From positions 1 through 54,320 of the IMG/VR virus record IMGVR_UViG_3300031673_000059: a stretch of 54,320 nucleotides of DNA; one strand, written 5' to 3'. The notes beneath the pieces are model-generated. The model was given only the letters and a program-made list of their open reading frames with translations, had not been told where the DNA came from and did no database searches. The stretch comes from a virus. Position 1 is the first letter of the stretch. Each line of letters starts with the position of its first letter. A program made the position numbers and the translations under genes. Of this stretch, positions 1,793 to 41,027 are shown in pieces.

Positions 1793-2231
1793 GGCAGCGC
1801 CAGGCTGCGCGCATGGTCTCTGGACGAACCATGTCGAAGTTCTCTCTGTGTCGCCTTATGCACGGCTCCCTGCGGAGAACACGGAGGCGGGTCGTCCAAC
1901 CGCCACCACGAGCAACATACGCATCAGTGATGCTGTATATGGCGTTCAGGTAAGCCCCACGAACTGGCGGCTCGGCGACGAAGTCGAACGTCATGATCTG
2001 GTAATCGACAACGCCGCCCTGCTCATCAATCGATCCACGACCGCTTTGAGAGATACCGACGCTCGAACCTTCGTTGAGCGCAGCCCGGAACCGCTCAGCG
2101 GCCTCGCCACGCAGCTCGAAGGCCGACGTCATCGTGCTCGCCCACGATTGGGTTCCGGTGACCGGGTTCTGGTTCGACGCAGCACCAGTAGGTGCCTCGG
2201 GCAGCGCGACTCTTACCTCGTCTGCTGATGT
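1788..2231 (-). CDS. +1-frame continuation of the gp23-like module of the FGE fusion protein (frameshift, error or pseudogene)
   Basis: The C-terminal part of track ORF 1788..2516 (...SADEVRVALPEAPTGAAS...MTSAFELRGEAAERFRAAL...) continues the order of conserved blocks seen in the capsid paralogs. Over the same DNA, the tail of frame A is Arg-rich and junk-like. Confidence 0.4.
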   Translation of the reverse strand, partial: TSADEVRVALPEAPTGAASNQNPVTGTQSWASTMTSAFELRGEAAERFRAALNEGSSVGISQSGRGSIDEQGGVVDYQIMTFDFVAEPPVRGAYLNAIYSITDAYVARGGGWTTRLRVLRREPCIRRHRENFDMVRPETMRAAWRCR

Positions 2232-5200
2232 TGTCGAGGTAGAAAAGCATTCCGGCTCGGTTGTCGAGTGGTTGAAGAGGGGGCGGCCAGAAGGGGTTGG
2301 AGAGTCCCTGTCTGACGAGGGGTCCTGCGAACCGGAGGAATGCTGAGTCGCTGCCCCCCTCAGCGACGACTCGGTCCATGTGTCGCTGGTGGTTTTCGAG
2401 GAGCATGCCTGTAAGAGCTCTTGTGAAACTGTCGTCGACTCCTTCGAGGAGGGGGGCCCATTTCTGGGTGTAGCGGTTGACGATGCTCTGAAACTCTGGT
2501 GCCTCAGCAGCGGCACCTCCAGGCCGCTCTTGGAGTAACTCCTGCCTCAACCTCGTCATGGTAGCGAGGATCTCTGATGGTTGAATCGGCGGTGTCGCAG
2601 ACCCAGTTGAGTCCTCGGACGACGCGACCGTCGTCCACACCTCGCTCGGGGGTGCCGTCGTCGATGGTGGCGCAGAAGACGTTGAGTCCGAGTAACTCGG
2701 GTCCGGGAGCGCCGCCGACGATCCGGACCCACTCAGAAAATCCGAGTCACCTCGCTCTCCAGGCTGACCTGGGCCCGAGCCAGCAACGATGTTCACCGGC
2801 TCGGATGATCCTGGAGTCGAAGGCCTCTCCATGCTGGTAGGACTGCCAGTTACCTCCTCGGACGGTGCAGGATCCGAACCCCATCTGCTCGATGGCTCGG
2901 TCCATGACGGATCGTAGGTAGATTCGACCGCTGGTGTTCCGGGGGGCGATTCCGAAGGTTCCCTCGACGATGTGTGTGAGTGGTCTTGGGTTGACCATGA
3001 TGGCCGCCGCTTCTGCTCTTGTGATGTTTGGGCCGTAGAGGGCCCTAACCCAAAAGGGACGTCATCGGGCCCTCCATGCCGCCCGTGGACCGGCCGTAAA
3101 GTCGGGGAGTTCGGGATCGAGCCACCAGGAATCGGCCCGATCCCACCCCTGCCAGTCTCCGCCTCTGAGCGTGTAGGCGTCGATCCCGATGTAGTGCGCG
3201 ACTTCGGGCGAGACTCGCATCCAGTTGGCTGGGTTTCTGACGGTGAGCTCGTAGATTCGTTGGGCCGCCGCCGCGACCCTGGCGATAAAGGGAGGTCACC
3301 TTGCTCTCCAGGCGCACCTGAGTCCGACGTCTCTGACGTCGTTTCCGGCACCTCGCTGCCGTCTGGCGACGAAGCCCTCGTCCTCTCCTCTGAGGACCTT
3401 AGGTCGATCCTCGGCGGTGATTGCGATGTAGGGGGCGTAGATGAACCCGGTGTCAAGGACTGTGTCGCCCTTGTAGCCGAAGAGGAACCCCGTCCTGTCT
3501 CCGTCCTGGGACTGGTCAACATGGATGAGGCGGCCGCCGTCTTGGGATGAGAATGGGGGCTCTGGGTGGACCGTCCACCCAGGCCTGATCCGAAACCCGA
3601 GTCACCTCGCTCTCCAGGCCCCTCGGAGTCCGAGTCCGTGGTCGAGGTCCCAGCCCCAGACTCTGCCGGTGTCGAGGCCTGGGTCGGCGAGTTCGAGCCA
3701 GCAGATCCCCCGGACCCTGATCCGGGGCTGGAAGGGTCCGAGCCGACCGGCGTTGCGTCCTCCGCGTAGGGGCCCAACCCCATCCCGAGGTCGGAGTAAG
3801 CGTCCATGTGCTCGTAGTCAGCGTACCGGTCGAGCAGCTGCCCGGAAGGAGACATGAGACTGTCGCTCAAGGACCCCGAGCTGGTCTCGCCATCCTGGAG
3901 ATCCCTCTGGGGGTCGTCCGACATTCCAACTGATGGACTTGAGGATGTATGGGATACCGTCCTGGTAGAAGATGCCTCCGAGGTAGCAGCGTCCGAGTTC
4001 GCCGAGCTCGATCTCGCTGCATGGGTTGACCCCGAAGGCTCCGTAGGGTCCGAGCTAATGAACCCTGGCTCTCCAGGCTGTCCTGACGCCTCCTCGGTCA
4101 ATGTTGTGGCCCCTGAAGGAGGCGCCTCGCTCCCAATCCCGGGGGGACTCATCCCAGGAGTAGCTTCGGATGAGGAATCGATGATGTTGCATGCGCTCTC
4201 GGACGGAGAGGCCTGCGTAGGGTCCGAGCTAGGCTCTCCAGGCTGGTCGGAGTCCTGCGTCCTGGGCCCCTCCGACTGCTCGTCCGATGTTGCTGACGGG
4301 GAACGGATAGGTCCCGCCGTTGAGATGATATGTAGGAGGGAATCCGTAGTCAGGAACGGGGTTGATGTAGGGTCCGGGCGTTGCTCGCCGTTAGCGATGT
4401 AGCCATTCTCGGGCAGGTCCTCGACCCCTCGAACCCACTGGCACCTGGTCCATTCGAAGACGTTCCCGCAGTTGTCGTGGAGCCCCCAGTTGTTCGGATC
4501 CTTCAGGCCAACTGCCTTGTGCCCGTCCTCAAACTCGCCGCCGAACCAGGCGATCTTCTTTAGGTCCTCATCCGTGTCGCCGTTGGGGTAGCGCGTAGTC
4601 GCTCCGGCCTTAGTCGCGTATTCCCACATCGCCTCAGAGGGGAGCTGAAAGCCGACCCGCTCACCCTTCTCGTTCCAGAGCCAGGCCTGGTAGGCCGCCT
4701 CGACCTCTGCTGAGAACACCAGCGCTTGGTTCTGGACAGGCAGAGGCATGATGTCCGTGTTGACCTGTTGCTCCCACTCTCTCCACGTCAGCGTGAAGGT
4801 CTGATCTGAGTGTGTGAACTTGCAGTTGGTCAACCGTGCAAAGTCCAGCCGGTTGATGAAGTCCTCGACCTCACGGCACCGATCCCAGGAGACGCTCTCA
4901 ACAGGGTGCTCCCCCCACCTGCGCCCATCAGAGTCCTTCAACTCCATGCGGGTCGCAGGCCCGAACGGCGCGTCACCCATGCGGGTGACGTTAAGCCCCT
5001 CCTCGACCATTTCGGTCGTAGGGAAGTGACTCGGGAACTCACGTGTGACGCGGTACCACTCACGCCCGGTCCACGGGTACTTCGCCATCAGGAATGGCTC
5101 GTCGAAGGTCCGCTTGACCTGTTGCTGGGCCGTCTCATCATCAGGGTCCGCAGTGGGACCCATCATGAACTCACCCGAAGGGATCAGAACGAAGATCATC

Positions 5201-5400
5201 CCCGTCGTCTTGTGCTGATACTCAGCCAGGCCTTGGGAGTTGAGCCCGAGACACGAGAAGAGCTCAGTCTCCTCTACGCGCAGTCCGTAGGGGACGTCGT
5301 TTCCGGCCCTGCGGATTCGCGTGATGTAGTCGCCGCGATCGGCCGCGTCGCCTGTAGCCTGCCAACGGCGTTCTGCTGCTCTTAAAGCGGCGTCTGACAT
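2095..5400 (-). CDS. FGE-sulfatase (SUMF1/EgtB/PvdO-type) domain protein with long S/P/T/G/E/D-rich disordered tether and C-terminal gp23-like N-arm module
   Basis: ORF track, 1101 aa. FGE signatures: IPSGEFMMGP, HPVESVSWDRC, LPSEAMWEYATKAG, NNWGLHDNCGNVFEWT. The C-terminal QKWAPLLEGVDD..LLENHQRH..LQPLDNRAGMLFYLD matches the T4 gp23 N-terminal region and the paralogs at 33.8-35.8 kb. AGGAG lies upstream of ATG 5400. Confidence 0.8.
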   Translation of the reverse strand: MSDAALRAAERRWQATGDAADRGDYITRIRRAGNDVPYGLRVEETELFSCLGLNSQGLAEYQHKTTGMIFVLIPSGEFMMGPTADPDDETAQQQVKRTFDEPFLMAKYPWTGREWYRVTREFPSHFPTTEMVEEGLNVTRMGDAPFGPATRMELKDSDGRRWGEHPVESVSWDRCREVEDFINRLDFARLTNCKFTHSDQTFTLTWREWEQQVNTDIMPLPVQNQALVFSAEVEAAYQAWLWNEKGERVGFQLPSEAMWEYATKAGATTRYPNGDTDEDLKKIAWFGGEFEDGHKAVGLKDPNNWGLHDNCGNVFEWTRCQWVRGVEDLPENGYIANGEQRPDPTSTPFLTTDSLLHIISTAGPIRSPSATSDEQSEGPRTQDSDQPGEPSSDPTQASPSESACNIIDSSSEATPGMSPPGIGSEAPPSGATTLTEEASGQPGEPGFISSDPTEPSGSTHAARSSSANSDAATSEASSTRTVSHTSSSPSVGMSDDPQRDLQDGETSSGSLSDSLMSPSGQLLDRYADYEHMDAYSDLGMGLGPYAEDATPVGSDPSSPGSGSGGSAGSNSPTQASTPAESGAGTSTTDSDSEGPGERGDSGFGSGLGGRSTQSPHSHPKTAAASSMLTSPRTETGRGSSSATRATQSLTPGSSTPPTSQSPPRIDLRSSEERTRASSPDGSEVPETTSETSDSGAPGEQGDLPLSPGSRRRPNESTSSPSETQPTGCESRPKSRTTSGSTPTRSEAETGRGGIGPIPGGSIPNSPTLRPVHGRHGGPDDVPFGLGPSTAQTSQEQKRRPSWSTQDHSHTSSREPSESPPGTPAVESTYDPSWTEPSSRWGSDPAPSEEVTGSPTSMERPSTPGSSEPVNIVAGSGPGQPGERGDSDFLSGSGSSAALPDPSYSDSTSSAPPSTTAPPSEVWTTVASSEDSTGSATPPIQPSEILATMTRLRQELLQERPGGAAAEAPEFQSIVNRYTQKWAPLLEGVDDSFTRALTGMLLENHQRHMDRVVAEGGSDSAFLRFAGPLVRQGLSNPFWPPPLQPLDNRAGMLFYLDNISRRGKSRAARGTYWCCVEPEPGHRNPIVGEHDDVGLRAAWRGR

Positions 5401-5428: not shown

Positions 5429-6817
5429 TCAGACTCCAAAGAGCGCATGGAAGAAGCTCTTGGGCTGGTAGGCCTTCTTCTCGGGCTGCTTGGGCGTGAC
5501 CTTGACATTGGGCGAACTGGGACCACTCGACGGATCGAGTCGCAGCAGCTCATCACCGCTCATGGGGCCCCGAAGGAAGCTGTAGGCCCACCGGATCTTG
5601 GTCACAGCGTGCTCCCCGCTCTTCTTCAGGATCAGGAAGTGCCGCTGAGGAATCGACGTCAGGGTCGACGTGTCCACGTTCCGGCTGGAAAGCTCCTTCT
5701 TGAGGTCCCGGGCGCAGTCCCGGGGCCGCAGCTTGCCGAGGAACCAAGTGCCGACGTTGGTCAGCGCCTTGTAGTCCATGTCGTTAGGGTTCTGAGTCCC
5801 GATCAGCATACCGATGCCCTGGGCCCGGCCCTGAGCGAGGAGCGTGCAGATCGGCTTCTTGGTCGGCGGGTTGAGCGGGTAGGGCGGGAGGTAGCCCCGC
5901 GCCTCGTCCAAGACGACCAGCAGCTTCAGCTTGTTGCTGGCCGGCGCCCGGAACATGTAGTCCACGATCGCCGACAGCAGCATGCCAGCGAAGAACTGCC
6001 GCTCACCCTCGTCCAGGTGTCGGAGGGAGAACACCGAGACCTTAGGCTTGCCGGTGCCCACGTAGCTCTCGATCGAGAGCGGAGAACCGTCGAGCCACTT
6101 GGTCGCTTGCCGCCGGAAGCCGACGATCGACCGAGCGATCTGCATCCGCTTCTTCTTGGGGAAGAAGTCGTCGAGGCTCAGGCCATCGATCTCCTTCAGA
6201 TTGGCAGGGGGCGTGTTCAGAGCGGCGGACCACGTGTCCAGACCGGCCGCCTGACCCGAGGCCCAGGCGTCGACCATCACGTCCGTCAGGAAGACGTTCG
6301 CGGGGTCGGTCATGGGGTCGGCGGTGTGGCCGATCGCGTTGAGGACTCCGGCGACCAGGGCCGAGGCCCGGTCCCGCAGCGCTTGCTCACTGTAGTTGCC
6401 GGTGGGAGCGTCGAAGGACGCCAGGACGTTGACGGACTGGCCGCCGCCTCGGGTCTTGCCGGGGGCGTAGATCGTGACATCGGCGGCCGACTTCCACCGC
6501 TGGACGTTGGGAGCCAGGTGGCCGAGCTCCTTCCGAGCTCGGTCAGCGATCTCGCCCGGGTCCTTGCCGTCCTCCGCCCAGGGAGCGAATTCGCCGGCGG
6601 CCAGACCGGGGAAGGCCAGGGCCAGATTGGTGAGGTCGCCCTTGGGGTCAATGATGATCGCGGACGCGCCGCTCAGCACGGCCTCTTCGATCGTGGCGAC
6701 GGTGGCGCCGGTCTTGCCGGAGCCGGTCCGACCCAGGACCACGCCGTGGGTGGTAAGGTCGGCGGGGTCGATCGTGAGAGGAGTTCCGTCGTTCTTGGTG
6801 CCGATCAACATGCTCAT
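5429..6817 (-). CDS. HerA/FtsK-superfamily P-loop ATPase, DUF853 (YjgR)-like
   Basis: Walker A is VLGRTGSGKTG, Walker B is LLVVLDEARG, followed by GIGMLIGTQNPNDMDY. The start is moved to ATG 6817 (MSMLIGT...) because GGTAGAAA sits exactly 5 nt upstream. The track ORF starts at 6856. Confidence 0.8.
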   Translation of the reverse strand: MSMLIGTKNDGTPLTIDPADLTTHGVVLGRTGSGKTGATVATIEEAVLSGASAIIIDPKGDLTNLALAFPGLAAGEFAPWAEDGKDPGEIADRARKELGHLAPNVQRWKSAADVTIYAPGKTRGGGQSVNVLASFDAPTGNYSEQALRDRASALVAGVLNAIGHTADPMTDPANVFLTDVMVDAWASGQAAGLDTWSAALNTPPANLKEIDGLSLDDFFPKKKRMQIARSIVGFRRQATKWLDGSPLSIESYVGTGKPKVSVFSLRHLDEGERQFFAGMLLSAIVDYMFRAPASNKLKLLVVLDEARGYLPPYPLNPPTKKPICTLLAQGRAQGIGMLIGTQNPNDMDYKALTNVGTWFLGKLRPRDCARDLKKELSSRNVDTSTLTSIPQRHFLILKKSGEHAVTKIRWAYSFLRGPMSGDELLRLDPSSGPSSPNVKVTPKQPEKKAYQPKSFFHALFGV

Positions 6818-6822
6818 GGTTG

Positions 6823-6830
6823 TTTCTACC
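6823..6830 (-). promoter_or_regulatory. GGTAGAAA, 5 nt, ATG 6817
   Basis: Plus strand reads cat ggttg tttctacc. Confidence 0.55.
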
Positions 6831-6909
6831 TTTCTTAGCCTTGTGGCTTCAACCACTACGCCGCCCTGCCACGATTCATCGAACTCGGGTATCAGTAAGC
6901 AGGTGACTT

Positions 6910-14983: not shown

Positions 14984-16183
14984 ATGTCTGGATTCGCGAC
15001 AGCGGGTACTGGTTCAGAGGGTGTTCTAAACGCCGTTTCGCACTCTGGAATCGACCACACGGGTATTCTCGGGGTCGGATCCGGAGGTGGCGACGCGTTT
15101 CCCATCGGGTGCATGGTCCCCTTTGGGGCCCTTGTCTCCGCCATTCCAGCCGGGTGGCTGGCCTGTGACGGGTCGGAGTATGGGCGTACAGGCGGAGACC
15201 CGAGCCCACAGCCCACGCTGTTTGGAATCATCGGCACCGCCTGGGGCATCGGTGACGGGTCCACTACCTTCAACGTCCCAGATCTCCGACACCGTGGTGT
15301 TGCCGGCATCAACGACGGAACACTACCTGCCGGCCCCGACGGTGGGTTCACCACTCGATCCCTTGGACAGCTCGCCGGCTCCGAGACCCACTCCCACACC
15401 GTCAACAACCACTCCCACACCATCTCGTCAGACGGAGCTCACACCCACACAGGCACTACTGATCCCAACGGTGTCAACATTATTGAGAGCTTGGCACCCA
15501 CTTACCCTGGTAACGACGGCATCAACTCGCGTCACACCCACACGTTCACCACCGGCGGCGCATCTCCTTCGACCCACTCTCACGGCTCGGTCACTGGACA
15601 ATCCAACCCGTCTACCAACGCGCAGCCTGGGTTCGGTCCGACCGCGTTCTGCCCGTTCATCATCAAGGCTGTAGCAGTTGGCGGTGGGGCTGGTGGTATC
15701 TCGAACCAGGTCAACGCAGGTCCTCTCCAGGGACCCCAGCCCACGATCAACTACATCGAAGGCCCCGGGATCTCGATCACGGCGGTGGAGAACATTCCTC
15801 AGAACCGCAACGACGTTACGATCAACGCCACTGGGGCGTTCGCGACACTTCCCTTCGGGTGCACCTTCGTCACTCCGAACAACTACGCAGTCGCCCACGG
15901 CGATGGTGCTCAGACTGAGATTGGATCTCTTACGGTGATCACTCAGACAGCATCACCGATTGCCGGCGGAACGGTCACACTGTCGTGGAACGTCTCTTTC
16001 TCCGGAGGAGATGCTCGCGTGTTCGTGAATGGGGTTGCCGCCGGCACACCGGTCACCCTCTCCACAGCTAACGGCGCTAGTGCGCAAGCGATTGCCGTCG
16101 CGGCCGGGGACAGGATCGCGGTCGAGTATCAGACCGGAACAGCGCCCGGACCTGCTCTCTTTGAGGTACACGTAGGCCCGTAG
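14984..16183 (+). CDS. phage tail-collar domain fibre protein (MdpB-like)
   Basis: The collar signature is GCMVPFGALVSAIPAGWLACDGSEY...LFGIIGTAWGIGDGSTTFNVPDLRHRGVAG. It is followed by HSHTVNNHSHTISSDGAHTHTG repeats. Confidence 0.85.
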   Translation: MSGFATAGTGSEGVLNAVSHSGIDHTGILGVGSGGGDAFPIGCMVPFGALVSAIPAGWLACDGSEYGRTGGDPSPQPTLFGIIGTAWGIGDGSTTFNVPDLRHRGVAGINDGTLPAGPDGGFTTRSLGQLAGSETHSHTVNNHSHTISSDGAHTHTGTTDPNGVNIIESLAPTYPGNDGINSRHTHTFTTGGASPSTHSHGSVTGQSNPSTNAQPGFGPTAFCPFIIKAVAVGGGAGGISNQVNAGPLQGPQPTINYIEGPGISITAVENIPQNRNDVTINATGAFATLPFGCTFVTPNNYAVAHGDGAQTEIGSLTVITQTASPIAGGTVTLSWNVSFSGGDARVFVNGVAAGTPVTLSTANGASAQAIAVAAGDRIAVEYQTGTAPGPALFEVHVGP

Positions 16184-16186
16184 GTC

Positions 16187-16636
16187 CTAGTAGTTCTCAA
16201 ACTCGGCGTGGCCCTCATCGATGAGTGTGTCGCCTAGGCTCTTCCAGCCGCCCTCTACCTTGTATAGGCACACAATTAGCCAACGGCCATATTTGCCCTT
16301 GTCGCCGCTCTTGAAGGACCAGACGCGGAGCTTCTGACCGACGCCTAGGAGCTCCTCGGCGCGCTGCTCGGCCAGAGCACCCATCTCCTTCTCCTTGCCC
16401 CGCGTCTCCCAGGCGTCGACGCAGTCGTCGCTCTTGTCGTCTGGGGTCAGGACGGCGCCCTCGGCCAGCAGGCGGCAGTAGGCTCGGACATCGATCTCGA
16501 AGCCGATGTCAATTCGAAGGCGGAAGCTATCGCCGTCGATGACTCCTTCTAGTTTGCCCACATCCGGCACGACCTCAGCCTCTCTCCAGGGTGTATCGAA
16601 AGGCGTCGTCTCTTCGTCGGTCCACAGCTTGCCCAT
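16187..16636 (-). CDS. staphylococcal-nuclease (SNase/thermonuclease)-like protein
   Basis: GVIDGDSFRLRI...CVDAWETRG...GALAEQRAEELLGVGQKLRV...DKGKYGRWLIVCLY...LIDEGHA follows the order of SNase-fold blocks. Confidence 0.65.
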   Translation of the reverse strand: MGKLWTDEETTPFDTPWREAEVVPDVGKLEGVIDGDSFRLRIDIGFEIDVRAYCRLLAEGAVLTPDDKSDDCVDAWETRGKEKEMGALAEQRAEELLGVGQKLRVWSFKSGDKGKYGRWLIVCLYKVEGGWKSLGDTLIDEGHAEFENY

Positions 16637-16692: not shown

Positions 16693-17058
16693 ATGAAGAC
16701 CGGCGCGAGGAAGGCAGTCGTCCGTAAGCTACGGAAGATGGTGAACCGGCATATCGGCAACATGGTCGATGAGAAGTTCGAAATGGGCTGCCTGGCGGCA
16801 AGTCTGTTCCCGGACTGGGTTGAGAGCGACTACTCCACCTTTGATCTTTACCTGTTCCACGGCTGTGGAATCCCATGGAACATCGCCAGTCGCCTGGAGA
16901 CGATGGCTCACACCTACTACGAGATTCCATCTCTTCAGATTTGGATGCAGGTGGGATACACAAGAGCCGCCCAAGCAGCCGGACAAGGCCGAGAGGGCCA
17001 AATCCGAGCGCTGCTTGAAAGCGGCTCTAATGTGCTAGACGTGATGACGTTGATCTAG
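16693..17058 (+). CDS. hypothetical protein; C-terminal NVLDVMTLI
   Basis: ORF track, 121 aa. Confidence 0.65.
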   Translation: MKTGARKAVVRKLRKMVNRHIGNMVDEKFEMGCLAASLFPDWVESDYSTFDLYLFHGCGIPWNIASRLETMAHTYYEIPSLQIWMQVGYTRAAQAAGQGREGQIRALLESGSNVLDVMTLI

Positions 17059-18140
17059 ACGGCGATCGGCGCTTCGGTGCAGACCGTGGTGAGGATCCTG
17101 GTGCAGACCCGGTAGGGGTCGCAGTTGGCTCCGGGTCGCCGATCTTCGATGTAGCCGTAGCCCTGCTGGGCTACCTGGGCGGGGATGCGGATCGAGCAGC
17201 CGCGATCACTGTCACCGACCTTGAACGTGTTGATGTCGCACGTCTCGTGCTTGCCGGTCAGGCGCTTCTCCAGGCCGAAGCCGTAGTCTGCGATGTGCTC
17301 GGCGTGGACCTCCGACATCGCCTTGACCGCCGCCGCGATAGCCGACTTGCCGGTGCCTGGGTCTCGCATCTCCTTCGTGGAGAAGTTTGTGTGAGCGCCC
17401 GCACCGTTCCAGTCGCCTTGCTCAGGCTTGCAGTTGAGGGTGGCCGAGATGCCGTAGTCCTCGCCGATCCGGAACAGGAGCCAACGCGCAAAGATCAGGT
17501 GATCTGCGACTGTGAGAGGGTCGGCTGACTCGCCCGGGAACCCAGGACGATGACCGATCTGGAACTCCCACTGACCCAGCATGACTTCGGCATTGATGCC
17601 GTAGATCATCAGCCCGGCCCTCATGCAGGCGCTGAGGTGATCCTCGACCAGCTTGCGGCCCGCAACCTCGTCAGCTCCGACGCCGCAGTAGTAGGGTCCC
17701 TGAGCGCGCTGCGGGAGTCCCTTCTCCGGCCATCCAAGGGGGCGGCCAGTGTCTAGGTTGTAGAGCGTGTACTCCTGCTCGAAGCCGAACCAGGGATCGT
17801 GGTCCTCAGCGACCGACATGATGTCCCGCAGACGGCTGCGAGTGTTGGTCTTGTGCGGCATGTCGTCTGGAGTGGTGACCTCGCACAGGACCAGGAAGTT
17901 GGCGCCGCCGCGAATCGGGTCGTTGACGACGCGAACCGGGGTGAGCACCTGGTCTGAGTTGGACGTCCCCGCCTGATTGGTCGACGAGCCGTCGAAACCC
18001 CAGACCGGAAAGGACGTGTAGTCGATGACGCCCTTCTGATCATCGGGTAGATAGACCACACGGGTCTTCGACCGAAGGTTCTGGACAGGGATGTCGGCGG
18101 ATCCGCCGTCCATCCAGATGTATTCAGCTCGTACGTGCAT
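17055..18140 (-). CDS. glnII: glutamine synthetase type II (eukaryote-like GSII)
   Basis: 361 aa. Blocks are AEYIWMDGG...LRSKTRVV, FGFEQEYTL, YYCGVGA, INAEVMLGQWEFQIG, GAGAHTNFS, RLTGKHET and SIRIP...YIEDRRPGANCDPY. Confidence 0.92.
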   Translation of the reverse strand: MHVRAEYIWMDGGSADIPVQNLRSKTRVVYLPDDQKGVIDYTSFPVWGFDGSSTNQAGTSNSDQVLTPVRVVNDPIRGGANFLVLCEVTTPDDMPHKTNTRSRLRDIMSVAEDHDPWFGFEQEYTLYNLDTGRPLGWPEKGLPQRAQGPYYCGVGADEVAGRKLVEDHLSACMRAGLMIYGINAEVMLGQWEFQIGHRPGFPGESADPLTVADHLIFARWLLFRIGEDYGISATLNCKPEQGDWNGAGAHTNFSTKEMRDPGTGKSAIAAAVKAMSEVHAEHIADYGFGLEKRLTGKHETCDINTFKVGDSDRGCSIRIPAQVAQQGYGYIEDRRPGANCDPYRVCTRILTTVCTEAPIAV

Positions 18141-18226
18141 AAGGCCCTTCCTGACTAATGGGGTTTGAAAGGGCAGTTTATAGCGTACTTAGGGCCGCCT
18201 CGTCGAGCCAGCTCTTATGATCGGGC

Positions 18227-18421
18227 TCATTCACCGATCAGAGCGGCGGCCAGCGTGTTCATGAACGGGCCCACCACAGCATCGTTGCTGAGTCGACGAG
18301 CCGTCATCACCACGCGTGGCATATCGATGTGGTCCTCCGCGCATAGAGAGCGGATGATGGCTTGAGCTTCCTCACCTTTGAGTGAGGCCAACCAACGAAG
18401 CAGGTGTTCTTCAGGTGTCAT
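18227..18421 (-). CDS. hypothetical small protein
   Basis: MTPEEHLLRWLASLKGEEAQAIIRSL... AGGAG lies 5 nt before ATG 18421. The longer track ORF 18227..18877 is junk upstream of this point. Confidence 0.55.
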   Translation of the reverse strand: MTPEEHLLRWLASLKGEEAQAIIRSLCAEDHIDMPRVVMTARRLSNDAVVGPFMNTLAAALIGE

Positions 18422-18429
18422 AGGGTCTC

Positions 18430-19611
18430 CTAGTCTATTGATCCGACGATCCGATCGAGCACACCGACCATGTCGAGCATTGTCCCTAGGTATTCGATCG
18501 CCTTGTCTTTCCCCCAGGCGTGGAGCAGACACTCCCTCTCCTTGGGGCCGCCCTTGCAGGTTACCCCGTCCTTCTCGCCGAGCGCCTTGACTACGCTCGA
18601 ATCGAACGCCTCGTTGTTCTTCCTCTGCATCTTGATGTTGATGACCCTCTTCCGAGGGCCGATGGTGATGGTGTAGTCGCCGTAGGCGATGGCGTACCAA
18701 GGCTCGTTTTTGAACTGGTCCTTGTAGTAGCCGTTGGGGAGCTCCGTCCTCGTCTTGTTGGCCAGTCCGACCGCCTCGAAGATCTCGTTGAAGAGCTTGG
18801 CGTGCCGGAGCTTGATCGGGTCGACCGGGACCTCGATTTCCTGACTCCGCCCTGCGTCCACCGCCTCCCAGGTCCACTCGCCGTCGACCTTGTTCTGGAT
18901 CCAGACGCTGACCTCATCGCCGGGAACCTGGGGAGGGATAGGGGACGCAGGGTGCCCAGTCTGGTACCAGGACTTCTTGCCGGCCGCCGCGTGGGCTTCG
19001 AGCGCGTCTAGGATCTCCTGGGAGTGTCTCTTTACCTCGTAGAGGGCGTTCTCGGCCATGTTCTTGAGAACTGCCATCCGGTCGATGGCGTCAGGGGCGT
19101 CCATCATGCCCCATTCCGAGCCCGGGTCTGACACCCGCCTCTTCCAGTTGGGCTCCCACTGACCGATGGTTTTCAGGAGGCCGAGGAGCAGAGGACCCTT
19201 CTTGGGCTCGGCTACCCCGCCATCGAGAAGCGGAAAGACCAGCATCCCGATCGGGCCTCCGGCTCCGAGTTCGGCCAGCCTAGCGACAGCAGTGTTCCGA
19301 TCTGCCTCAGGGGTCAAGGGGGTGACAAGCGCTCTGAGCTGAGAGACCTCTTCGTCGAAGGCGGCCTTGTTGGCCCGCCAGGTCTTGAGGACCGTGCCGT
19401 TGAACCAGTCGGCCACCCTCTCGGAGAGACCCTCGCCCGGCTTCCGCATGAGCATGAAGAGGTTCCCGCCGTCGGCGGCCATATGGACCCCGAACCGGTC
19501 GCAGCCCTTGCACTTGAAGTTGCTCTGCGACATCCCGCCGAAGGAACCACCGTGACCCTGCCACTTAGGCGCGGCGCAGATACAGGACGGTACGTTCTCT
19601 GGCAACGCCAT
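18430..19611 (-). CDS. hypothetical protein; C-terminal GVLDRIVGSID
   Basis: ORF track, 393 aa. TAATG overlap with the NADAR gene. Confidence 0.7.
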   Translation of the reverse strand: MALPENVPSCICAAPKWQGHGGSFGGMSQSNFKCKGCDRFGVHMAADGGNLFMLMRKPGEGLSERVADWFNGTVLKTWRANKAAFDEEVSQLRALVTPLTPEADRNTAVARLAELGAGGPIGMLVFPLLDGGVAEPKKGPLLLGLLKTIGQWEPNWKRRVSDPGSEWGMMDAPDAIDRMAVLKNMAENALYEVKRHSQEILDALEAHAAAGKKSWYQTGHPASPIPPQVPGDEVSVWIQNKVDGEWTWEAVDAGRSQEIEVPVDPIKLRHAKLFNEIFEAVGLANKTRTELPNGYYKDQFKNEPWYAIAYGDYTITIGPRKRVINIKMQRKNNEAFDSSVVKALGEKDGVTCKGGPKERECLLHAWGKDKAIEYLGTMLDMVGVLDRIVGSID

Positions 19612-20048
19612 TAGGGCATCTCCATGATCTCTGCTCTGATATCCATCAAAATGCGGCCCAAGTGATTTTCTCCCTCACCCTCACAGACCCCCCAAAAGGT
19701 GTCGCGCCAAGAGTTTCCTTCGACCAGGTGCTGTCGTCCGGTCAGGATCAACTTCTCTCTGAGTCCAGGGTTCTCGAACTTCTTCCGCAGGATCCCTTTC
19801 ATCGTAGCGAGCTTGCAGATCCGCTCATTCTTGGTCCAGCCCTTAGACAGGGTGACCTTCTGGCCCAATCGCTTAGCCTTGCCGCAGGACTTGGCCTCCC
19901 TGATCTCTCGCCTTTGCTCAGGATCATCAGTCTTGGCGGCCTGATAGGCATGCTCTGAAGATGGATAAACGTCCCCCTGCCACTCGATGTCGATCATGTG
20001 GAAGTTGGAGAGCCAGCGGTATTCGCCTTTGAAGTCGGTGATGCTCAC
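19611..20048 (-). CDS. NADAR (YbiA/DUF1768) family protein
   Basis: YRWLSNFH...SSEHAYQAAK...AKRLG...W...KLATMKGILRKKF.NPGLREKLILTGRQHLVEGNSWRDTFWGV...GENHLGRILMDIR. The start is GTG 20048 (GTGA overlap). Confidence 0.85.
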   Translation of the reverse strand: MSITDFKGEYRWLSNFHMIDIEWQGDVYPSSEHAYQAAKTDDPEQRREIREAKSCGKAKRLGQKVTLSKGWTKNERICKLATMKGILRKKFENPGLREKLILTGRQHLVEGNSWRDTFWGVCEGEGENHLGRILMDIRAEIMEMP

Positions 20049-26982: not shown

Positions 26983-27352
26983 TTGACGACCCTCCTACAG
27001 CATCAACGATGTCATCCAGGATCATAACCCGTCGTAGGTAGGGCAGGACGATGTCTCTCACCCGATGTCTGTTGAGATAGCCACCAGAGCCGTCGTTCTG
27101 GGTGAAGGCCCTATCTCCGTTGATCGAGGACTCTCCGGGGATGAAAAGATCGACCCATAGACCTCGCAGCTGCTCGAACTTGATGTCCACATCCCCGAGC
27201 CGGCAGGTGATCATGGATCCGGATCCCCAGTTCACGGGTATCGACTTGCCGTGGAGCTTCAACAGCTTGAAGCATCGATCCTTGAGCTCTTTGACAAGCG
27301 CCTCTTGGGTAGCATTGTCTTCAGTAGTTCCAGTCTGATCGTCGTCCCACAT
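26951..27352 (-). CDS. hypothetical protein; near-C-terminal MILDDIVDAVGG
   Basis: ORF track, 133 aa. The ATG is 6 nt downstream of GGTAAAAC. Confidence 0.65.
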   Translation of the reverse strand: MWDDDQTGTTEDNATQEALVKELKDRCFKLLKLHGKSIPVNWGSGSMITCRLGDVDIKFEQLRGLWVDLFIPGESSINGDRAFTQNDGSGGYLNRHRVRDIVLPYLRRVMILDDIVDAVGGSSSGRQVADGEG

Positions 27353-27358
27353 GTCTGG

Positions 27359-27366
27359 GTTTTACC
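27359..27366 (-). promoter_or_regulatory. GGTAAAAC, 6 nt, ATG 27352
   Basis: Back-to-back with 27368..27375. Confidence 0.5.
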
Positions 27367-27367
27367 G

Positions 27368-27375
27368 GGTAGAAC
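27368..27375 (+). promoter_or_regulatory. GGTAGAAC, 5 nt, ATG 27381
   Basis: gggtagaac atggt atg. Confidence 0.55.
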
Positions 27376-27380
27376 ATGGT

Positions 27381-28121
27381 ATGACTCGAATGACGATCAT
27401 GAGAGGTGGACCGGGCTCTGGTAAGAGCTTTCAGGTTGCCCAGCTCTGCTTCACCAGGGACAAGGCTCCTGTCGTCTGCTCTGCGGACGAGTTCTTCGTT
27501 GATGACAACGGAAACTACAGCTTCGATCCCAGATGGCTGGGGAGGGCCCACGGCGCTTGCCTGAAGAAGTGCGTGGAGTCGATGGTCGCTCGGGAAAACG
27601 TCATCATCGACAACACCAACAGCAGTCCGACCGAGATGATCCCCTACCTGGCCTTGTGTCAGGCGTTCGGTTATTCCTGCACTGTGATCAAGGTCCTTTG
27701 CGACCGGAAGATCGCTTGGAAGCGGCAGTCGCACGGAGTGCCGGAGGACAAGTTCAACGAGATCCACTCCGCCGTTGAGCAGACCAAGGTCCCGTCCCTT
27801 TACCGGGGTGCTCCGTGGCTGACCGAGAGGGAGGTCAGGTCGGACGGACTCTATCGGCCGCATCCCAAGATCTACCAGCCCTACTCCGGAGCTCGGTGCA
27901 TCAAGTGCTCCGGCAACATCGTCTACAGCTACTCCGACGGGACCAAGGAGGGCTTCCGGTACTGTGACCACGAGGAAGACTGGTGCACGTGCCCTGACGG
28001 TCAAGAGGAGCCAGGGGAACCGTACGCTGGTCTCCCCCGCGAGTGCAACTGCGGGGTGAGCAAAGGCCTGCGGTCCGACCACGAGTCACAGTGTCAGGCG
28101 ACCTACATCCAGAGGAAGTGA
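27381..28121 (+). CDS. P-loop kinase, AAA_33 / N4BP2-like (polynucleotide-kinase-like) with Cys-rich C-terminal extension
   Basis: MRGGPGSGKS...SADEFF...Y.FDP..LGRAHGAC...VIIDNTNSSPTEMIPY...HGVPEDKF. Confidence 0.75.
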   Translation: MTRMTIMRGGPGSGKSFQVAQLCFTRDKAPVVCSADEFFVDDNGNYSFDPRWLGRAHGACLKKCVESMVARENVIIDNTNSSPTEMIPYLALCQAFGYSCTVIKVLCDRKIAWKRQSHGVPEDKFNEIHSAVEQTKVPSLYRGAPWLTEREVRSDGLYRPHPKIYQPYSGARCIKCSGNIVYSYSDGTKEGFRYCDHEEDWCTCPDGQEEPGEPYAGLPRECNCGVSKGLRSDHESQCQATYIQRK

Positions 28122-28723: not shown

Positions 28724-28798
28724 ATTCACCGCATGGACCGCTCGGGGCCTCGCAGAAATAGGGGACACAGAGATCGACTCTCCTGGGTAAGAGAGAGT

Positions 28799-29254
28799 AT
28801 GAGCGACGTCCAACTATATCGAGCATCTGTTGAGATCCTGGTCTGGCACCCTGAAGCTGAGACCTGGGACAAGCCTGACGAGAACCCCCGGCTACTTACG
28901 GTCACAAATCGGCGGTGGGGAGGGTTCTCCTGCCCTGGTGGAAAGGTCGAGAAGGGCGAGAGCCTGATGGCGGCCGCCAGACGGGAGTTCTTCGAAGAGA
29001 CTGGCTGCGAGGCCCACAACCTCGAACAGTGGATGGGCGGGGTTCACTATGACGCGCCGAAGGACGAAGGACCGCCGTGGTTCTGCATGGCATTCTGGGC
29101 CAACATCGGGGATCAGATCCCAACCCAGCAAGAGGAAGGGACGGAGATCGGCTGGCACACGCCTCAACAGCTGATGAGCGACTCTATCTACCCTGAGTGG
29201 TATCGATTCCTCTTCGCCCAAGCGGACATGGGCTACCAACTAAAGGACATCTAA
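28799..29254 (+). CDS. Nudix hydrolase (MutT-like)
   Basis: The Nudix box is PGGKVEKGESLMAAARREFFEETG. Start moved to ATG 28799. Confidence 0.85.
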   Translation: MSDVQLYRASVEILVWHPEAETWDKPDENPRLLTVTNRRWGGFSCPGGKVEKGESLMAAARREFFEETGCEAHNLEQWMGGVHYDAPKDEGPPWFCMAFWANIGDQIPTQQEEGTEIGWHTPQQLMSDSIYPEWYRFLFAQADMGYQLKDI

Positions 29255-29547: not shown

Positions 29548-29858
29548 AGGTCACGGTTAAGGAAGAGTTCGATCTCTTCGAGCTCTTCGTGCATGACACC
29601 GAAGCGATTCACGCCCTCTGCCCATACGAAGTGGCCGAGGCCATTAACGAACACTTGTGCGAATCAGGCTGGAAGGTCAGCCCGCCGGAGAGCCTGAGCC
29701 GGTTCACCCTCTTCAGTATCGATGATGAGGAGGAGGGATACCTGGAGCGCTACTACACCGCCCAACAGGTGAAGGATGCTTTCCCACCCGAGGTTGTCGA
29801 AGCCCTCGAAGAGATCAACGAACTAGAGTTCGATCTCAGCCCGAGGAAGCAGAGCTAG
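29544..29858 (+). CDS. hypothetical acidic protein
   Basis: ORF track, 104 aa. ATGA overlap. Confidence 0.6.
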   Translation: MKVTVKEEFDLFELFVHDTEAIHALCPYEVAEAINEHLCESGWKVSPPESLSRFTLFSIDDEEEGYLERYYTAQQVKDAFPPEVVEALEEINELEFDLSPRKQS

Positions 29859-30370
29859 ACTCCGTGGAGCAGCGCCGACCGTAGGTCATGATGGACCGGA
29901 ATCGGACCAGCTGGCGCCGGAAGGCCCAACGCGGTTGCGAACTTGTCCACACCGTTGGCGATGGATGCTAGGTAGCGGTTCTTGGGCGAACCCTCTGGGA
30001 AGCCCAGGACTACGCGATCGGGCCAAGTGGCGGCCATGAACCCGAACTCGACGTTGGTGGTGAACGCCGGCATATTCTCCAGGTTACGGGGCACCCAGAA
30101 GAGAACTCGCTCGGCACGACCTAGCGCCTGCCACTCCCACTCGACCTGGCGTTGGTAGTCGCCACACCAGCCCCAGTTCTCGTCTTGAGGGACGAAGACG
30201 TAGCCGGTGTAGCCGGCCTCCTCCAAGATCTCCAACGCTTCCTGCCGCCACCCCTGAACGTTCTTGTCGCGCGGTGTTGGTCCCGCCAGGAAGATGCTGT
30301 TGGGTGTGACCCCCCTCCGCGTCGGAGGCAGGTCTTGGGGAACGAAGACGACCTTAGGACCGATGGACAC
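29855..30370 (-). CDS. nucleoside 2-deoxyribosyltransferase-like protein (Nuc_deoxyri_tr2-type)
   Basis: SIFLAGPTPR...WRQEALEIL...QVEWEWQALGRAERVLFWVPRNLENMPAFTTNVEFG. Confidence 0.65.
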   Translation of the reverse strand: MSIGPKVVFVPQDLPPTRRGVTPNSIFLAGPTPRDKNVQGWRQEALEILEEAGYTGYVFVPQDENWGWCGDYQRQVEWEWQALGRAERVLFWVPRNLENMPAFTTNVEFGFMAATWPDRVVLGFPEGSPKNRYLASIANGVDKFATALGLPAPAGPIPVHHDLRSALLHGV

Positions 30371-33703: not shown

Positions 33704-33844
33704 ACCTACGACTGGGAGGTGGGCGCCAGGCTGGTTGCCCAACTGATCGCGTCCAAGGACCCACTAGGGCTGGTCGAGTCGTGGGAGACGCCGGACAACT
33801 GCGAGCTGCCAGGATATGGCCGGGTGCGGATCGACAACGTCTAG
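33704..33844 (+). other. 46 in-frame coding-like codons after TGA 33701 (readthrough / selenocysteine / sequencing error candidate)
   Basis: TYDWEVGARLVAQLIASKDPLGLVESWETPDNCELPGYGRVRIDNV*. Most third positions are G/C, as in genes here. There is no usable start codon. It ends in a 4-nt overlap (ctag) with the stop of the convergent capsid gene. Confidence 0.4.
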
Positions 33845-34779
33845 TAGGGCGTTCCGGCCAACGTGATCAGAGATGCGAACTCCGGCCTCACGAGTGTGAT
33901 TTTGTGCCGGGTGCGGATCGCGCGCCGAAGAGTCTTGTCGGCCGGATCTACGAAGTTCGGTGTGATCTCGACCATGGTGTAAGGACTGTAGATGACGCAC
34001 GTATCCATTACGCTGTCGTCTGCCTGATACCAGGCCAGCAGCTTCCCTACGGGGAAGAGGGGATCCAGGTAGACGCCCCTGCCGTCAACCTCGCCGATTT
34101 TGGCGATGCCGTCTGCCTCTTGGACGTCAAAGCCAAGCTGGGCCAGCATCGCCGCGTTGCCAATGACCCTGTTTGCCGGGTTCCGCTGAGACCCCCGATG
34201 GACGATGTGGGCCGCCCTGTCCAGAGCTTCTTTGAGATCACCGCCGGCGGCCAACTCGATCTTGTTGTTGTCCAGGACGCCGTTCAGGATCGTTCCTACG
34301 ATCTCCCGAGCCACCTCGGTCAGGAGTGCGTCGATGTTCAGAGCCCCCTCTTCGTTGACGTCGGTGTGTGCCTTGCAGCGCCTCGACTCCGCTCGGATCT
34401 CTTGAGGGATGATGTCCAGCACGACGGAAGGCACCTTGACCTTCCTCTCGACGCCGTCTTGAATCAGGGTCGCCTCCTCCATCTCCCCGAAGCGCGGCTT
34501 GTAGTAGTAGACGATCCCGATCGGCCCAGTCATCGGCTGCACCGCGCAGAGGTCCGGGAGCACGTGGGTCCGGACCGAGGCCTTGAGGTTATCGAAGAGA
34601 TCCTCCGTCCACGAGCCGAGGACCAATGCCCGGGTCTCCTCGACGAGACGCTGAAGGTGTCTGCTCTGGTTCTCGCAGACCATGGCAGCGATGTTCGACC
34701 TGTAGCCGTCCTCTAGGCCCCACTTGGTGCGGAGCTTCTCTAGATAGCTCTCGTCCGGCATACCATCAAGCTGAGTCAT
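33841..34779 (-). CDS. T4 gp23/gp24-family capsid-fold protein, compact paralog A
   Basis: LRTKWGLEDGY..MVCENQSRH, DLCAVQPMTGPIGIVYYYK, ANRVIGNAAML and GVYLDPLFP..LAWY....MDTCVIYSPY match the remembered T4 gp23 blocks (KWKPLLEG..IFENQ, VQPMNSPTGQVF, YRVYIDQY..GYKGP..DAGIYYAPY). The start is ATG 34779 (AGGAGG 4 nt upstream). Confidence 0.85.
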   Translation of the reverse strand: MTQLDGMPDESYLEKLRTKWGLEDGYRSNIAAMVCENQSRHLQRLVEETRALVLGSWTEDLFDNLKASVRTHVLPDLCAVQPMTGPIGIVYYYKPRFGEMEEATLIQDGVERKVKVPSVVLDIIPQEIRAESRRCKAHTDVNEEGALNIDALLTEVAREIVGTILNGVLDNNKIELAAGGDLKEALDRAAHIVHRGSQRNPANRVIGNAAMLAQLGFDVQEADGIAKIGEVDGRGVYLDPLFPVGKLLAWYQADDSVMDTCVIYSPYTMVEITPNFVDPADKTLRRAIRTRHKITLVRPEFASLITLAGTPY

Positions 34780-34824
34780 AGTTCCTCCTGATGCGGAGGG
34801 TACCACAACTACATCAGATTTACA

Positions 34825-35778
34825 TCAGACAATCTGCGCCAACCGCTCCAGGACGTTGACCTTAACCACCTGGATGTGGCTCGGATGGGCCACATGGATG
34901 TTGTGGTTCAGGTAGATCGCGAAGTTGTGGCGGCCGTCCATCGGATCGAGCGGGTAGCAGAAGGGCGAGTAGACGACCGGCGTGTCTACGATGCTTGGTC
35001 CCATGTACCAGAGCATTACTTCACCGTCAGGGAACAGCGGATCCAGGTAGACGTGCATCCTCTGCTTGTAGACGCCTACCTTCTTCACCAGGCCGGTATC
35101 AGTCGTGTCCCACTCGTCCGGATCCTCCGGCGAGAAAAGCTCCAACATCTTCTCATTGCCGATCACGTGATTGGCCGGGCCCCGCATGCAGCGCTTGTGG
35201 ACCATCTGCGAGGCGCGAAGGATATCAGTGTCGAACGCGGTGTAGGTCGACTCCAACACATTGCCGGCGGCCGATCCCGCGCCGTGCATGACGCCCAACA
35301 CCTCGCGGATGGACGCCAGCATGACCGAGTCGAACACGCTGTCGATGAGCGCGAAGTTTCCTGGGTAGATCCTGACGCCGAGTCGCCTGATGGAGGCTTG
35401 GACGTTGACCGTCTGCAGGTTCAACGTCATCGTCGGGATCGATGTGCTCCCAGGAGTAGTGGGTCCGGCCGGCGTGGTGATGTTGGTTTGGCCGTAGAAG
35501 CCGATGGTGTCTGATGGCCTCCGTAGGGGCTGGACCGACACCATGTCGATCAGGGGGCAGTGCACCCAGGCCTTCACGAGAGCTCGGTAGAACTTGTCCT
35601 TCCAGTTGTCGCCATAGGTCTCTTCCAGATCATCGGGGATCAGCGATGAGCAAAGGACGTTGGCCTGGTTCTCCAACAGTAGAGCGATGACGCCAGAGCG
35701 CTTGTGATGGCCGGGGAGGTAACCCTCCCACTTCTCGGTCAGAGCCTTGATGTGGTCGTTGTCCAACATGGTGGGCAT
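34825..35778 (-). CDS. T4 gp23/gp24-family capsid-fold protein, compact paralog B; C-terminal NVLERLAQIV
   Basis: TEKWEGYLPG..LLLENQANV, MVSVQPLRRPSDTIGFYG, ANHVIGNEKML and MHVYLDPLFPDGEVMLWYMGPSIVDTPVVYSPF. Confidence 0.85.
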   Translation of the reverse strand: MPTMLDNDHIKALTEKWEGYLPGHHKRSGVIALLLENQANVLCSSLIPDDLEETYGDNWKDKFYRALVKAWVHCPLIDMVSVQPLRRPSDTIGFYGQTNITTPAGPTTPGSTSIPTMTLNLQTVNVQASIRRLGVRIYPGNFALIDSVFDSVMLASIREVLGVMHGAGSAAGNVLESTYTAFDTDILRASQMVHKRCMRGPANHVIGNEKMLELFSPEDPDEWDTTDTGLVKKVGVYKQRMHVYLDPLFPDGEVMLWYMGPSIVDTPVVYSPFCYPLDPMDGRHNFAIYLNHNIHVAHPSHIQVVKVNVLERLAQIV

Positions 35779-40450: not shown

Positions 40451-40524
40451 CCTAGAACCTCGCTCGTGCTTAGTGAAATCGGATCTCGCGCGAAGCGCGA
40501 GACCTAGTGTAGTGCGCAGGCTTC

Positions 40525-40532
40525 CTTTTACC
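40525..40532 (-). promoter_or_regulatory. GGTAAAAG motif, 74-nt leader to ATG 40450
   Basis: Plus strand reads cttttacc(c). Divergent with 40548..40555. Confidence 0.4.
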
Positions 40533-40547
40533 CTATCGGCCGAATTC

Positions 40548-40555
40548 GGTATAAC
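40548..40555 (+). promoter_or_regulatory. GGTATAAC, 7 nt, ATG 40563
   Basis: ggtataac aaacccc atg. Confidence 0.5.
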
Positions 40556-40562
40556 AAACCCC

Positions 40563-41027
40563 ATGAACGACACAATCAAAAACGATGACGCTAAGCATCA
40601 ATACGTGTTGGTTGCCATGTGGACCGCGAAGGATCATCACGGGCAAGAGCAATACTCCCACCGAGTGGTTCATTCGACGTGGGAGGGCGAGTGGGACCCG
40701 AAAGGTATCGTCGAGCGCTACGTCCAGACGGAGCACCCGACCTGGATGCCGGACAGCTTCGGCAAGATCGGATACTTCATGGCGGAGGCTGAGGTCGAGC
40801 TCAGCCGAGTCGCGGTCTATAAGGTGGTCGGCGGCCGCCACGAAGACGCCTGGCCTGAATGGCTTGAGGAAGCAAGGGCTAAGCGCGCCTCAATCGATGT
40901 GGAGCGCGAGCGTATGGCCGACATGCAGACGATCGCACTGCTTCAGAGGAAGTGGGGCCTAGGTGAGCAAACAGAAGCCAAAGAAGCGAGCGCAGCGACT
41001 GAAGAGGGCGAAGCGGCGGAAGCATAG
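40563..41027 (+). CDS. hypothetical protein with acidic tail
   Basis: Start moved to ATG 40563 (MNDTIKNDDAKHQYVLVAMW...). Confidence 0.65.
   Translation: MNDTIKNDDAKHQYVLVAMWTAKDHHGQEQYSHRVVHSTWEGEWDPKGIVERYVQTEHPTWMPDSFGKIGYFMAEAEVELSRVAVYKVVGGRHEDAWPEWLEEARAKRASIDVERERMADMQTIALLQRKWGLGEQTEAKEASAATEEGEAAEA

Follow-up and report, generated by a model that had tools for sequence, protein, structure and literature searches.

A type II glutamine synthetase gene on a metagenomic fragment of a large tailed phage

The window analysed here is a complete metagenomic contig of 54,320 bp (IMG/VR record IMGVR_UViG_3300031673_000059; ~60 % G+C). It carries, on the reverse strand, a gene for a type II glutamine synthetase (GSII, named GlnII in bacteria; GS below), which is the subject of this report. 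The features at the gene itself are the following.

17055..18140, reverse strand: coding sequence of the GS (GlnII), 361 aa, with its ATG at 18140 and its TAG at 17057-17055; matched in Pfam, NCBIfam and the PDB.
18146..18152, reverse strand: AGGAAGG, a Shine-Dalgarno-like motif 5 nt upstream of the GS ATG, read off the sequence.
17055..17058, both strands: palindromic CTAG, which forms the TAG stop of the GS gene (reverse) and of a convergent open reading frame (ORF) at 16693-17058 (forward), from the sequence and the ORF coordinates.
16693..17058, forward strand: the convergent ORF, 121 aa, with no match in the Pfam scan (from the ORF list).

The AGGAAGG motif before the GS start codon reads as a bacterial-type translation signal. 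No promoter-like site was detected around the gene in a promoter scan, and terminator-like sites there did not exceed the shuffled expectation in a terminator scan. The 4-base, tail-to-tail CTAG overlap was also found in five phage contexts among related loci (L001, L004, L007, L129 and L130). A sequence-only reading of this DNA had described an intact 361-aa GSII whose gene overlaps the stop of its neighbour. Both parts of that description were borne out, the first by the ORF, the database matches, the active-site residues and the modelled fold, and the second by the shared CTAG.

The protein has the two-domain layout of GSII, an N-terminal beta-grasp domain followed by a C-terminal catalytic domain, and its 361 aa fall within the length class of ~330–380 aa. 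Pfam Gln-synt_C was matched at 46.4 bits and Gln-synt_N at 33.3 bits (E 4e-8), which is 0.1 bit short of the cutoff of 33.4. The NCBIfam GlnII model (NF041605) was matched over its full length, with protein residues 1–356 aligned to model positions 1–331 of 333 (449.4 bits, E 7e-135). In a PDB sequence search all 16 solved GSII structures were matched, with E values from 4e-108 to 1e-92, the best being GlnII of Streptomyces coelicolor (4bax, E 4e-108). Type I GS structures reached only ~1e-5 (archaeal GSI), the type I model PRK09469 of NCBIfam just 21.5 bits, and the NCBIfam match to gamma-glutamylputrescine synthetase was weak at 28.7 bits. The protein is nearer to GSII than to GSI or GSIII in sequence and fold. 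Type I GS (GlnA), which is dodecameric and regulated by adenylylation, catalyses the same reaction with a distantly related catalytic domain, but the window protein is ~110 residues shorter.

The window protein was aligned with the dog (human numbering), maize and Streptomyces GSII, taken from PDB alignments, and with 12 metagenomic relatives. Active-site residues had been named in the sequence-only reading as a point to check, and 21 of the 21 catalytic, metal, ATP, glutamate and ammonium-site residues that were checked are present (D50, S53, W117, E121, E123, Y151, E185, E192, N245, G246, H250, N252, S254, R259, R293, E299, R313, R318, Y330, E332 and R334). They align with D63 to R340 of the human/dog enzyme and with D56 to R332 of the maize enzyme, and the identities of the reference residues were verified in the alignment; the functional labels are what we take to be those of the mammalian and maize GS structure papers. 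An AlphaFold2 model of the monomer, built on a 104-sequence alignment, had a predicted local distance difference test (pLDDT) score of 92.6 and a predicted template modelling (pTM) score of 0.93. In a Foldseek search of the PDB, the model superposed on 4bax with template modelling (TM) scores of 0.89/0.93 and a root-mean-square deviation of 1.8 Å, followed by maize, Drosophila and human GS, and the top 50 matches were all GSII (TM 0.84–0.89). A catalytically competent GSII, predicted to convert ATP, L-glutamate and NH4+ to L-glutamine, ADP and Pi, is well supported by the alignment and the model.

Relatives of the GS were sought among 5.8 billion proteins. The matches at 84–64 % identity were all on metagenomic contigs without names, and below 64 % came proteins of bacterial metagenome-assembled genomes (MAGs) at ~59–63 % (Planctomycetota, Alphaproteobacteria, Gammaproteobacteria and Coxiellaceae); no NCBI-genome protein in this search exceeded 63 % identity. 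Likewise, no GTDB species representative exceeded 62 % among the matches listed (600 candidates). The best cellular matches (at most 62–63 %, among the matches listed) were scattered over Gammaproteobacteria, Alphaproteobacteria, Gemmatimonadota, Margulisbacteria, Bdellovibrionales, Planctomycetota and others. In a tree of 240 GSII sequences (100 bootstraps), the window GS was placed in a 12-member clade (bootstrap 100) nested in a 35-member clade (bootstrap 92) that spans 64–100 % amino-acid identity, and neither clade of this tree contained a reference or GTDB genome sequence. Genomic contexts were phage-like in all seven clade members examined (P0001, P0002, P0008, P0017, P0033, P0035 and the IMG/VR locus L009), and these contexts form two architectures, one collinear with the window and the other rich in nucleotide-metabolism genes. 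The sequence-only reading had expected database searches and phylogeny to point to a donor lineage and thereby to a host. These analyses returned a deep-branching phage clade with no supported cellular sister; because the nodes joining it to any cellular group have bootstrap values of 0–12, no donor or host lineage can be named.

The same reading had called the enzyme eukaryote-type and paired it with a major-vault-protein gene on the contig as a second eukaryote-like gene. This pairing is not supported as a eukaryotic signature. Over aligned columns the window GS is 56 % identical to Streptomyces GlnII and 51–52 % identical to dog and maize GS, against ~60–63 % for its nearest bacterial relatives (MAG proteins of Planctomycetota, Alpha- and Gammaproteobacteria and Gemmatimonadota). 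An insert of 8–9 residues after QWEFQIG is common to the window GS and the nearest bacterial GlnII and is absent from Streptomyces GlnII and from eukaryotic GS; it was rejected as a phage-specific feature because nearby bacterial GlnII also have it. Eukaryotic references group with giant-virus MAG copies (L043-L045 and L047; 39–43 % identity), apart from the window clade. Since identity is higher to bacterial GlnII, the insert is shared with bacteria and the eukaryotic references group elsewhere, the window GS is best placed in the bacterial GlnII family, and a eukaryotic connection is not supported by the label. Bacterial GlnII (4bax) has the same two-domain architecture, length class (~330–370 aa), fold and catalytic residues as the window GS. 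It differs in sequence (identity ~56 % across aligned columns and 52 % when aligned by structure) and in lacking the QWEFQIG insert and the longer N-terminal hairpin of the window protein, which is also phage-encoded and lies away from genes of nitrogen regulation or ammonium transport. Giant-virus and eukaryotic GSII (human 2ojw/2qc8, maize 2d3a) share family, fold and active site with it, and the giant-virus copies are likewise virus-borne; the eukaryotic enzymes are 51–52 % identical and lack the bacterial-subfamily insert, whereas the window carries translation signals of bacterial type and genes of a tailed phage.

The genes that flank the GS, and the Gp23-like capsid homologues further along the contig, are listed here.

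14984..16183, forward strand: phage tail-collar domain protein (Pfam Collar, 52.5 bits; PHROG tail, tail-collar and tail-fibre families).
16187..16636, reverse strand: phage endonuclease family protein, 149 aa, downstream of the GS (PHROG 452, E 1.6e-11; no Pfam match in the window copy).
18227..18421, reverse strand: ORF of 64 aa directly upstream of the GS, separated from the GS ATG by 86 nt; also a called gene on sister contigs, no Pfam match.
18430..19611, reverse strand: ORF of 393 aa upstream of the GS, no family match; present in L001 and L003.
19611..20048, reverse strand: NADAR-domain protein, 145 aa (Pfam NADAR, 80 bits), first of a co-directional run of NADAR, 393-aa ORF, 64-aa ORF and GS.
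33841-34806 and 34825-35778, reverse strand: two tandem homologues of Gp23, the T4-type major capsid protein, 321 and 317 aa (Pfam Gp23, 41.6 and 31.3 bits, both above the cutoff; PHROG 138, major head protein).

The GS gene lies 17 kb from the nearest contig end with viral genes on both sides, as is expected of an auxiliary metabolic gene (AMG). The sequence-only reading had placed it amid viral genes, and it is indeed flanked on one side by the tail-collar and endonuclease genes; NADAR and an ATP-dependent DNA ligase of phage type lie on its other side. In tblastn searches the Gp23-like proteins matched major capsid proteins annotated in distant T4-like myoviruses (phages of Flavobacterium, Rhodothermus, Microcystis and Synechococcus) and in uncultured huge phages. 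The contig is dense in small ORFs, mostly without a family match; no tRNA was found in a tRNA scan of the window, no cellular housekeeping gene was present among its annotated genes, and no nucleotide-level similarity to known phages was detected. The identical GS protein was found on three further contigs from three samples, with the same neighbours. Samples with the contig are ENA ERZ27256847 and ERZ27256810 and JGI 3300031578. The 21-kb GS regions of a 203,521-bp IMG/VR viral contig and of a 150,811-bp contig are collinear with the window at 65–77 % nucleotide identity, and their GS proteins are ~88 % (BLASTP; 90 % by tblastn) and 84 % identical to the window GS, respectively. Because of the phage genes, the absence of tRNA and annotated housekeeping genes and the collinearity with viral contigs, the window is a fragment of a large tailed phage and not host chromosome.

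Nei-Gojobori dN/dS of the GS was 0.085 against L009 and 0.16 against L004, while farther comparisons were synonymously saturated. The G+C content at third codon positions of the GS gene was 0.81, inside the range of the window's other ORFs. Given these low ratios and the phage-only clade, the GS is, as far as its sequence can tell, a long-retained, functional phage gene under purifying selection. The ratios, together with the phage-only clade (bootstrap 92–100), are also the mark of maintenance by selection that is expected of an AMG. The sequence-only reading had taken the gene for an AMG acting on host nitrogen or glutamine supply; with purifying selection and the same gene position in related phages, this is the most reasonable reading, while the idea itself is not new.

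It is therefore probable that a tailed jumbo phage carries a competent GSII, that this enzyme represents a phage-restricted branch of bacterial GlnII kept in at least two genome architectures, and that it would supply glutamine during infection, a role put forward here by inference. Bacterial GSI is throttled by PII and GlnE adenylylation and by nitrogen-responsive transcription, and GSII lacks the adenylylation segment. A phage-borne GS would add glutamine-synthesising capacity beyond the host's control of its own GS. The added glutamine would serve as amide-nitrogen donor for the synthesis of purines, pyrimidines, NAD and amino sugars, and such a supply could meet the demand of a replicating genome of ~200 kb.

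Gene context in relatives bears on this role. In a sister phage group (L007, L129 and L130) the GS lies among genes for a 5'-nucleotidase (NT5C), a dCMP/dCTP deaminase and a nucleoside deoxyribosyltransferase-like protein, and further neighbours there are a phosphoribosyltransferase, a tRNA nucleotidyltransferase and a peptidyl-tRNA hydrolase. This gene context suggests a link of phage GS to nucleotide metabolism. When two genes on each side of the GS were pooled over 28 dereplicated viral loci (107 proteins), ribonucleotide reductase (RNR) was the most recurrent neighbour family (6 of 107), and this adjacency is weak evidence for a nucleotide role. On a 1.9-Mb bacterial contig (L128, 6092-10336), a cellular GlnII that is 63 % identical to the window's lies between a glutaminase and an ammonium transporter (Amt). 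Since the cellular homologue has this glutaminase-GS-Amt arrangement, the phage copies no longer sit in the nitrogen-assimilation setting of cells.

Two observations on these related loci stand apart from the question of role. The glutaminase of L128 is fused to ankyrin repeats and an EF-hand domain, an unusual architecture beside a GS. In L007 (12869-14521, reverse strand), a 550-aa protein of the dCTP-deaminase family (PF22769 DCD) has a faint LAGLIDADG match, which suggests an intein or homing-endonuclease insertion in that gene.

Several points weigh against the reading of a competent phage GS that supplies glutamine. The NF041605 score lies below the 500-bit equivalog cutoff of that model; the shortfall coincides with insertions relative to the model, and the window GS is treated here as a divergent member of the GlnII subfamily, not as a non-member. 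States private to the 35-member clade are V19, an inserted R145, A160, L188 (nearly all others P), C237 (others P) and R344. None of these is a catalytic residue, and L188 and the R145/A160 loop adjoin the active site: L188 replaces the usual proline between two metal-binding glutamates, and the inserted R145 and A160 lie in the mobile loop before Tyr151. Confidence of the AlphaFold2 model is lowest at residues 141–160 (pLDDT 64–69), in the loop before this ammonium-site tyrosine. Because of the private changes near the active site and the low-confidence loop, the clade's GS may have changed kinetics or specificity. The tree was built by neighbour-joining, not by maximum likelihood. No terminase or portal gene was identified within the 54-kb window, and a jumbo size of the phage (at least 200 kb) is probable from its collinear relatives, the window itself being 54 kb. 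None of the immediate neighbours of the GS in the window is a nucleotide-synthesis gene; they are ORFs without a family, and NADAR. One or two clades contribute most of the RNR signal, and at some of their IMG/VR loci the GS has cellular-looking neighbours such as TonB-receptor Plug domains. No report of the biochemical characterisation of any phage GS was found in the literature, and the physiological role proposed here is one that we infer from sequence.

The IMG/VR loci behind part of this signal call for a separate remark. In three of them, which belong to one 'viral' GSII clade (L024, L032 and L042), the GS is apparently flanked by a class II RNR and a ~920-aa protein, the latter probably with TonB-dependent-receptor Plug and CarboxypepD_reg domains (assigned by ORF size). 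Given such Bacteroidota-like, cellular-looking neighbours, some IMG/VR GS loci may not be viral.

A more far-reaching version of the phage-GS reading is tentative and on balance doubtful. It holds that a single, ancient capture from bacteria gave rise to this GSII, which then passed vertically through at least two jumbo-phage architectures (at least 35 members), and that the changes next to the active site (L188, the inserted R145, A160 and C237) make the enzyme deregulated or alter its kinetics to suit the infected cell, so that it would be more than a plain copy of a host gene.

Among the alternatives, the one that survives best keeps a true GS and shifts its main benefit, either to the scavenging or detoxification of ammonia from phage deaminases and nucleotide turnover or to glutamine for NAD+ resynthesis against NAD-depleting defences. 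Deaminases that release NH3 from dCMP or dCTP do occur a few kb or less from the GS in L007, L129 and L130, and in the window the GS is co-directional with NADAR, an ADP-ribose-processing domain, on a contig where two NUDIX genes are also present, as is a nucleoside deoxyribosyltransferase-like gene. The deaminase neighbours are, however, absent from the window, none of the window proteins scanned is an NAD synthetase, a Nampt or another enzyme of NAD salvage, and co-direction with NADAR is no evidence of a common pathway. Both variants are the same chemistry as general glutamine supply, from which sequence cannot separate them, and as the main benefit they are considered unlikely.

The protein could also be an amidoligase with the GS fold and another substrate, such as a gamma-glutamyl-polyamine or -amine synthetase or a ligase that modifies nucleotides or DNA. 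Bacterial GS-like paralogues that use other amines are known (GlnA2-4 of Streptomyces, and PuuA), the window protein has a weak gamma-glutamylputrescine synthetase match and a score under the GlnII equivalog cutoff, its clade differs by specific substitutions and by a residue inserted into the loop that lines the ammonium site, and DNA hypermodification is frequent in large phages. This alternative is nevertheless improbable. Asp50, Ser53, Tyr151 and Glu299 at the ammonium site, and every residue that binds glutamate, ATP or metal, are kept exactly as they are in bona fide GSII, and identity to bacterial GlnII in nitrogen-assimilation contexts is 60–63 %. The known paralogues with alternative substrates are GSI-like, not GSII, and the GlnII model is matched end to end, with insertions explaining the lower score.

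It is very improbable that the window comes from an ordinary bacterial chromosome, or is a cellular contig wrongly assembled or binned, with the GS as the host's own glnII, which is the finding that the sequence-only reading had named as fatal to its view. In favour of this, GSII occurs widely in environmental bacteria, bacterial MAG proteins are the nearest relatives with a name, and the window lacks an identified terminase or portal gene. Against this stand the tail-collar gene, the two Gp23-like homologues, the phage-type ligase and endonuclease and the dense small ORFs mostly without a family, the lack of tRNA and of housekeeping genes among those annotated, the collinearity with the 203.5-kb IMG/VR viral contig, and a GS clade without any GTDB genome sequence; the true cellular homologue, unlike the window gene, is in the glutaminase-GS-Amt context. 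Least credible of all is a recent, selectively neutral host passenger unused by the phage, since, although phages do carry transient host fragments, the gene has the same position in relatives at 65–77 % nucleotide identity, belongs to a deep phage-only clade of 64–100 % amino-acid identity, and combines a dN/dS of 0.085–0.16 with a codon composition like that of the rest of the contig and an intact active site.

A phage-borne GS has ample precedent. GS genes in huge phages have been counted at 248 in 247, mostly aquatic, phages (bioRxiv 10.1101/2025.02.27.640493), they are present in 9 of 25 moraphage genomes (PMC12619734), and there are further reports from huge or jumbo phages (PMC13037316, PMC13172472); glnA is listed among jumbo-phage AMGs. 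In mudflat large phages glnA is common and clusters with prokaryotic homologues, while giant-virus copies cluster with eukaryotes, and giant-virus GS has been reported elsewhere (PMC9270025, PMC1821046). Phage GS has likewise been read in the literature as manipulating host nitrogen and glutamine supply. The 2007 Global Ocean Sampling (GOS) paper had argued, for GSII of marine bacteria, that the type II label does not mean a eukaryotic connection, and type II GS of viruses was already noted there. No paper singling out type II GS in phages was found in the literature. GS in huge phages is thus already reported at scale, and the window GS adds one more phage case.

Like these GS AMGs of huge and jumbo phages, the window gene resides in a large tailed phage and groups with prokaryotic homologues. 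IMG/VR yielded 39 GSII loci, and in INPHARED GSII was found in four uncultured phages of 635–735 kb, at 45–47 % identity to the window GS. The phage and IMG/VR GSII copies retrieved fall in at least six virus-only clades of the tree, IMG/VR membership alone being no proof of viral origin. Compared with the other copies, the window lineage has ~60 % G+C, is 45–57 % identical outside its own relatives and forms a separate, well-supported clade. The window thus supplies a well-documented high-GC example of a large phage with its own glutamine synthetase. It is evidence that at least one family of phage GS genes has long been inherited and kept by selection in phages, as opposed to having been taken from a host recently, and the reading of 'eukaryote-type' as eukaryote-derived is corrected. 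Should the enzyme prove active and escape the nitrogen control of the host, this would favour the view that large phages safeguard the amide-nitrogen supply of nucleotide synthesis, a matter of relevance to the rerouting of nitrogen by viruses in soils and waters.

Some observations concern the neighbours of the GS and the rest of the contig. The 121-aa convergent ORF is kept in the close relative L004 at 45 % identity, whereas GS-bearing phages farther away have a small convergent ORF without detectable homology to it. Small convergent ORFs beside phage GS genes form two families with 13–18 % identity to each other; since the two have no detectable homology and none has a Pfam match, a role as functional partner of the GS was rejected. 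By eye, the 121-aa protein shows no likeness to PII. The NADAR gene is kept upstream of the GS in the collinear relatives L001, L003 and L004; NADAR enzymes process ADP-ribose adducts, and a counter-defence role is possible. At ~320 aa each, the Gp23-like pair is far shorter than T4 gp23, the Pfam Gp23 model alone having 376 positions. A DEAD-box helicase is also encoded on the contig. The remaining annotated features are given below.

5429-6856, reverse strand: HerA/DUF87-type ATPase (Pfam), kept near the GS region in L004 and L005.
2095-5400, reverse strand: 1101-aa protein with an FGE-sulfatase (formylglycine-generating-enzyme-like) domain at residues 70-336 and a PHROG 'kinase' match at residues 237-335.
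28733-29254 (forward), 43407-44108 (forward), 29855-30370 (reverse), 45463-46029 (reverse), 39284-40579 (reverse) and 27351-28121 (forward): a set of nucleotide and small-molecule genes, comprising two NUDIX hydrolases, a nucleoside 2-deoxyribosyltransferase-like protein, a hemerythrin, a DHH phosphoesterase and an AAA_33/polynucleotide-kinase-like ATPase.
51425-54319, forward strand: major-vault-protein (MVP)-like ORF of more than 964 aa, running off the contig end (Pfam MVP_shoulder, 80 bits; weak Vault_3 repeat match).

The HerA/DUF87 ATPase was not accepted as a terminase, its match to a terminase PHROG being confined to the Walker-A region and accompanied by a weak match to a Streptococcus-phage 'bipolar DNA helicase'. 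Outside its FGE-sulfatase domain, the other ~765 residues of the 1101-aa protein are without annotation. An MVP-like gene, as the sequence-only reading had seen on this element, is present, and phage-encoded MVP homologues had already been described in a 2023 preprint (bioRxiv 10.1101/2023.11.10.566534).

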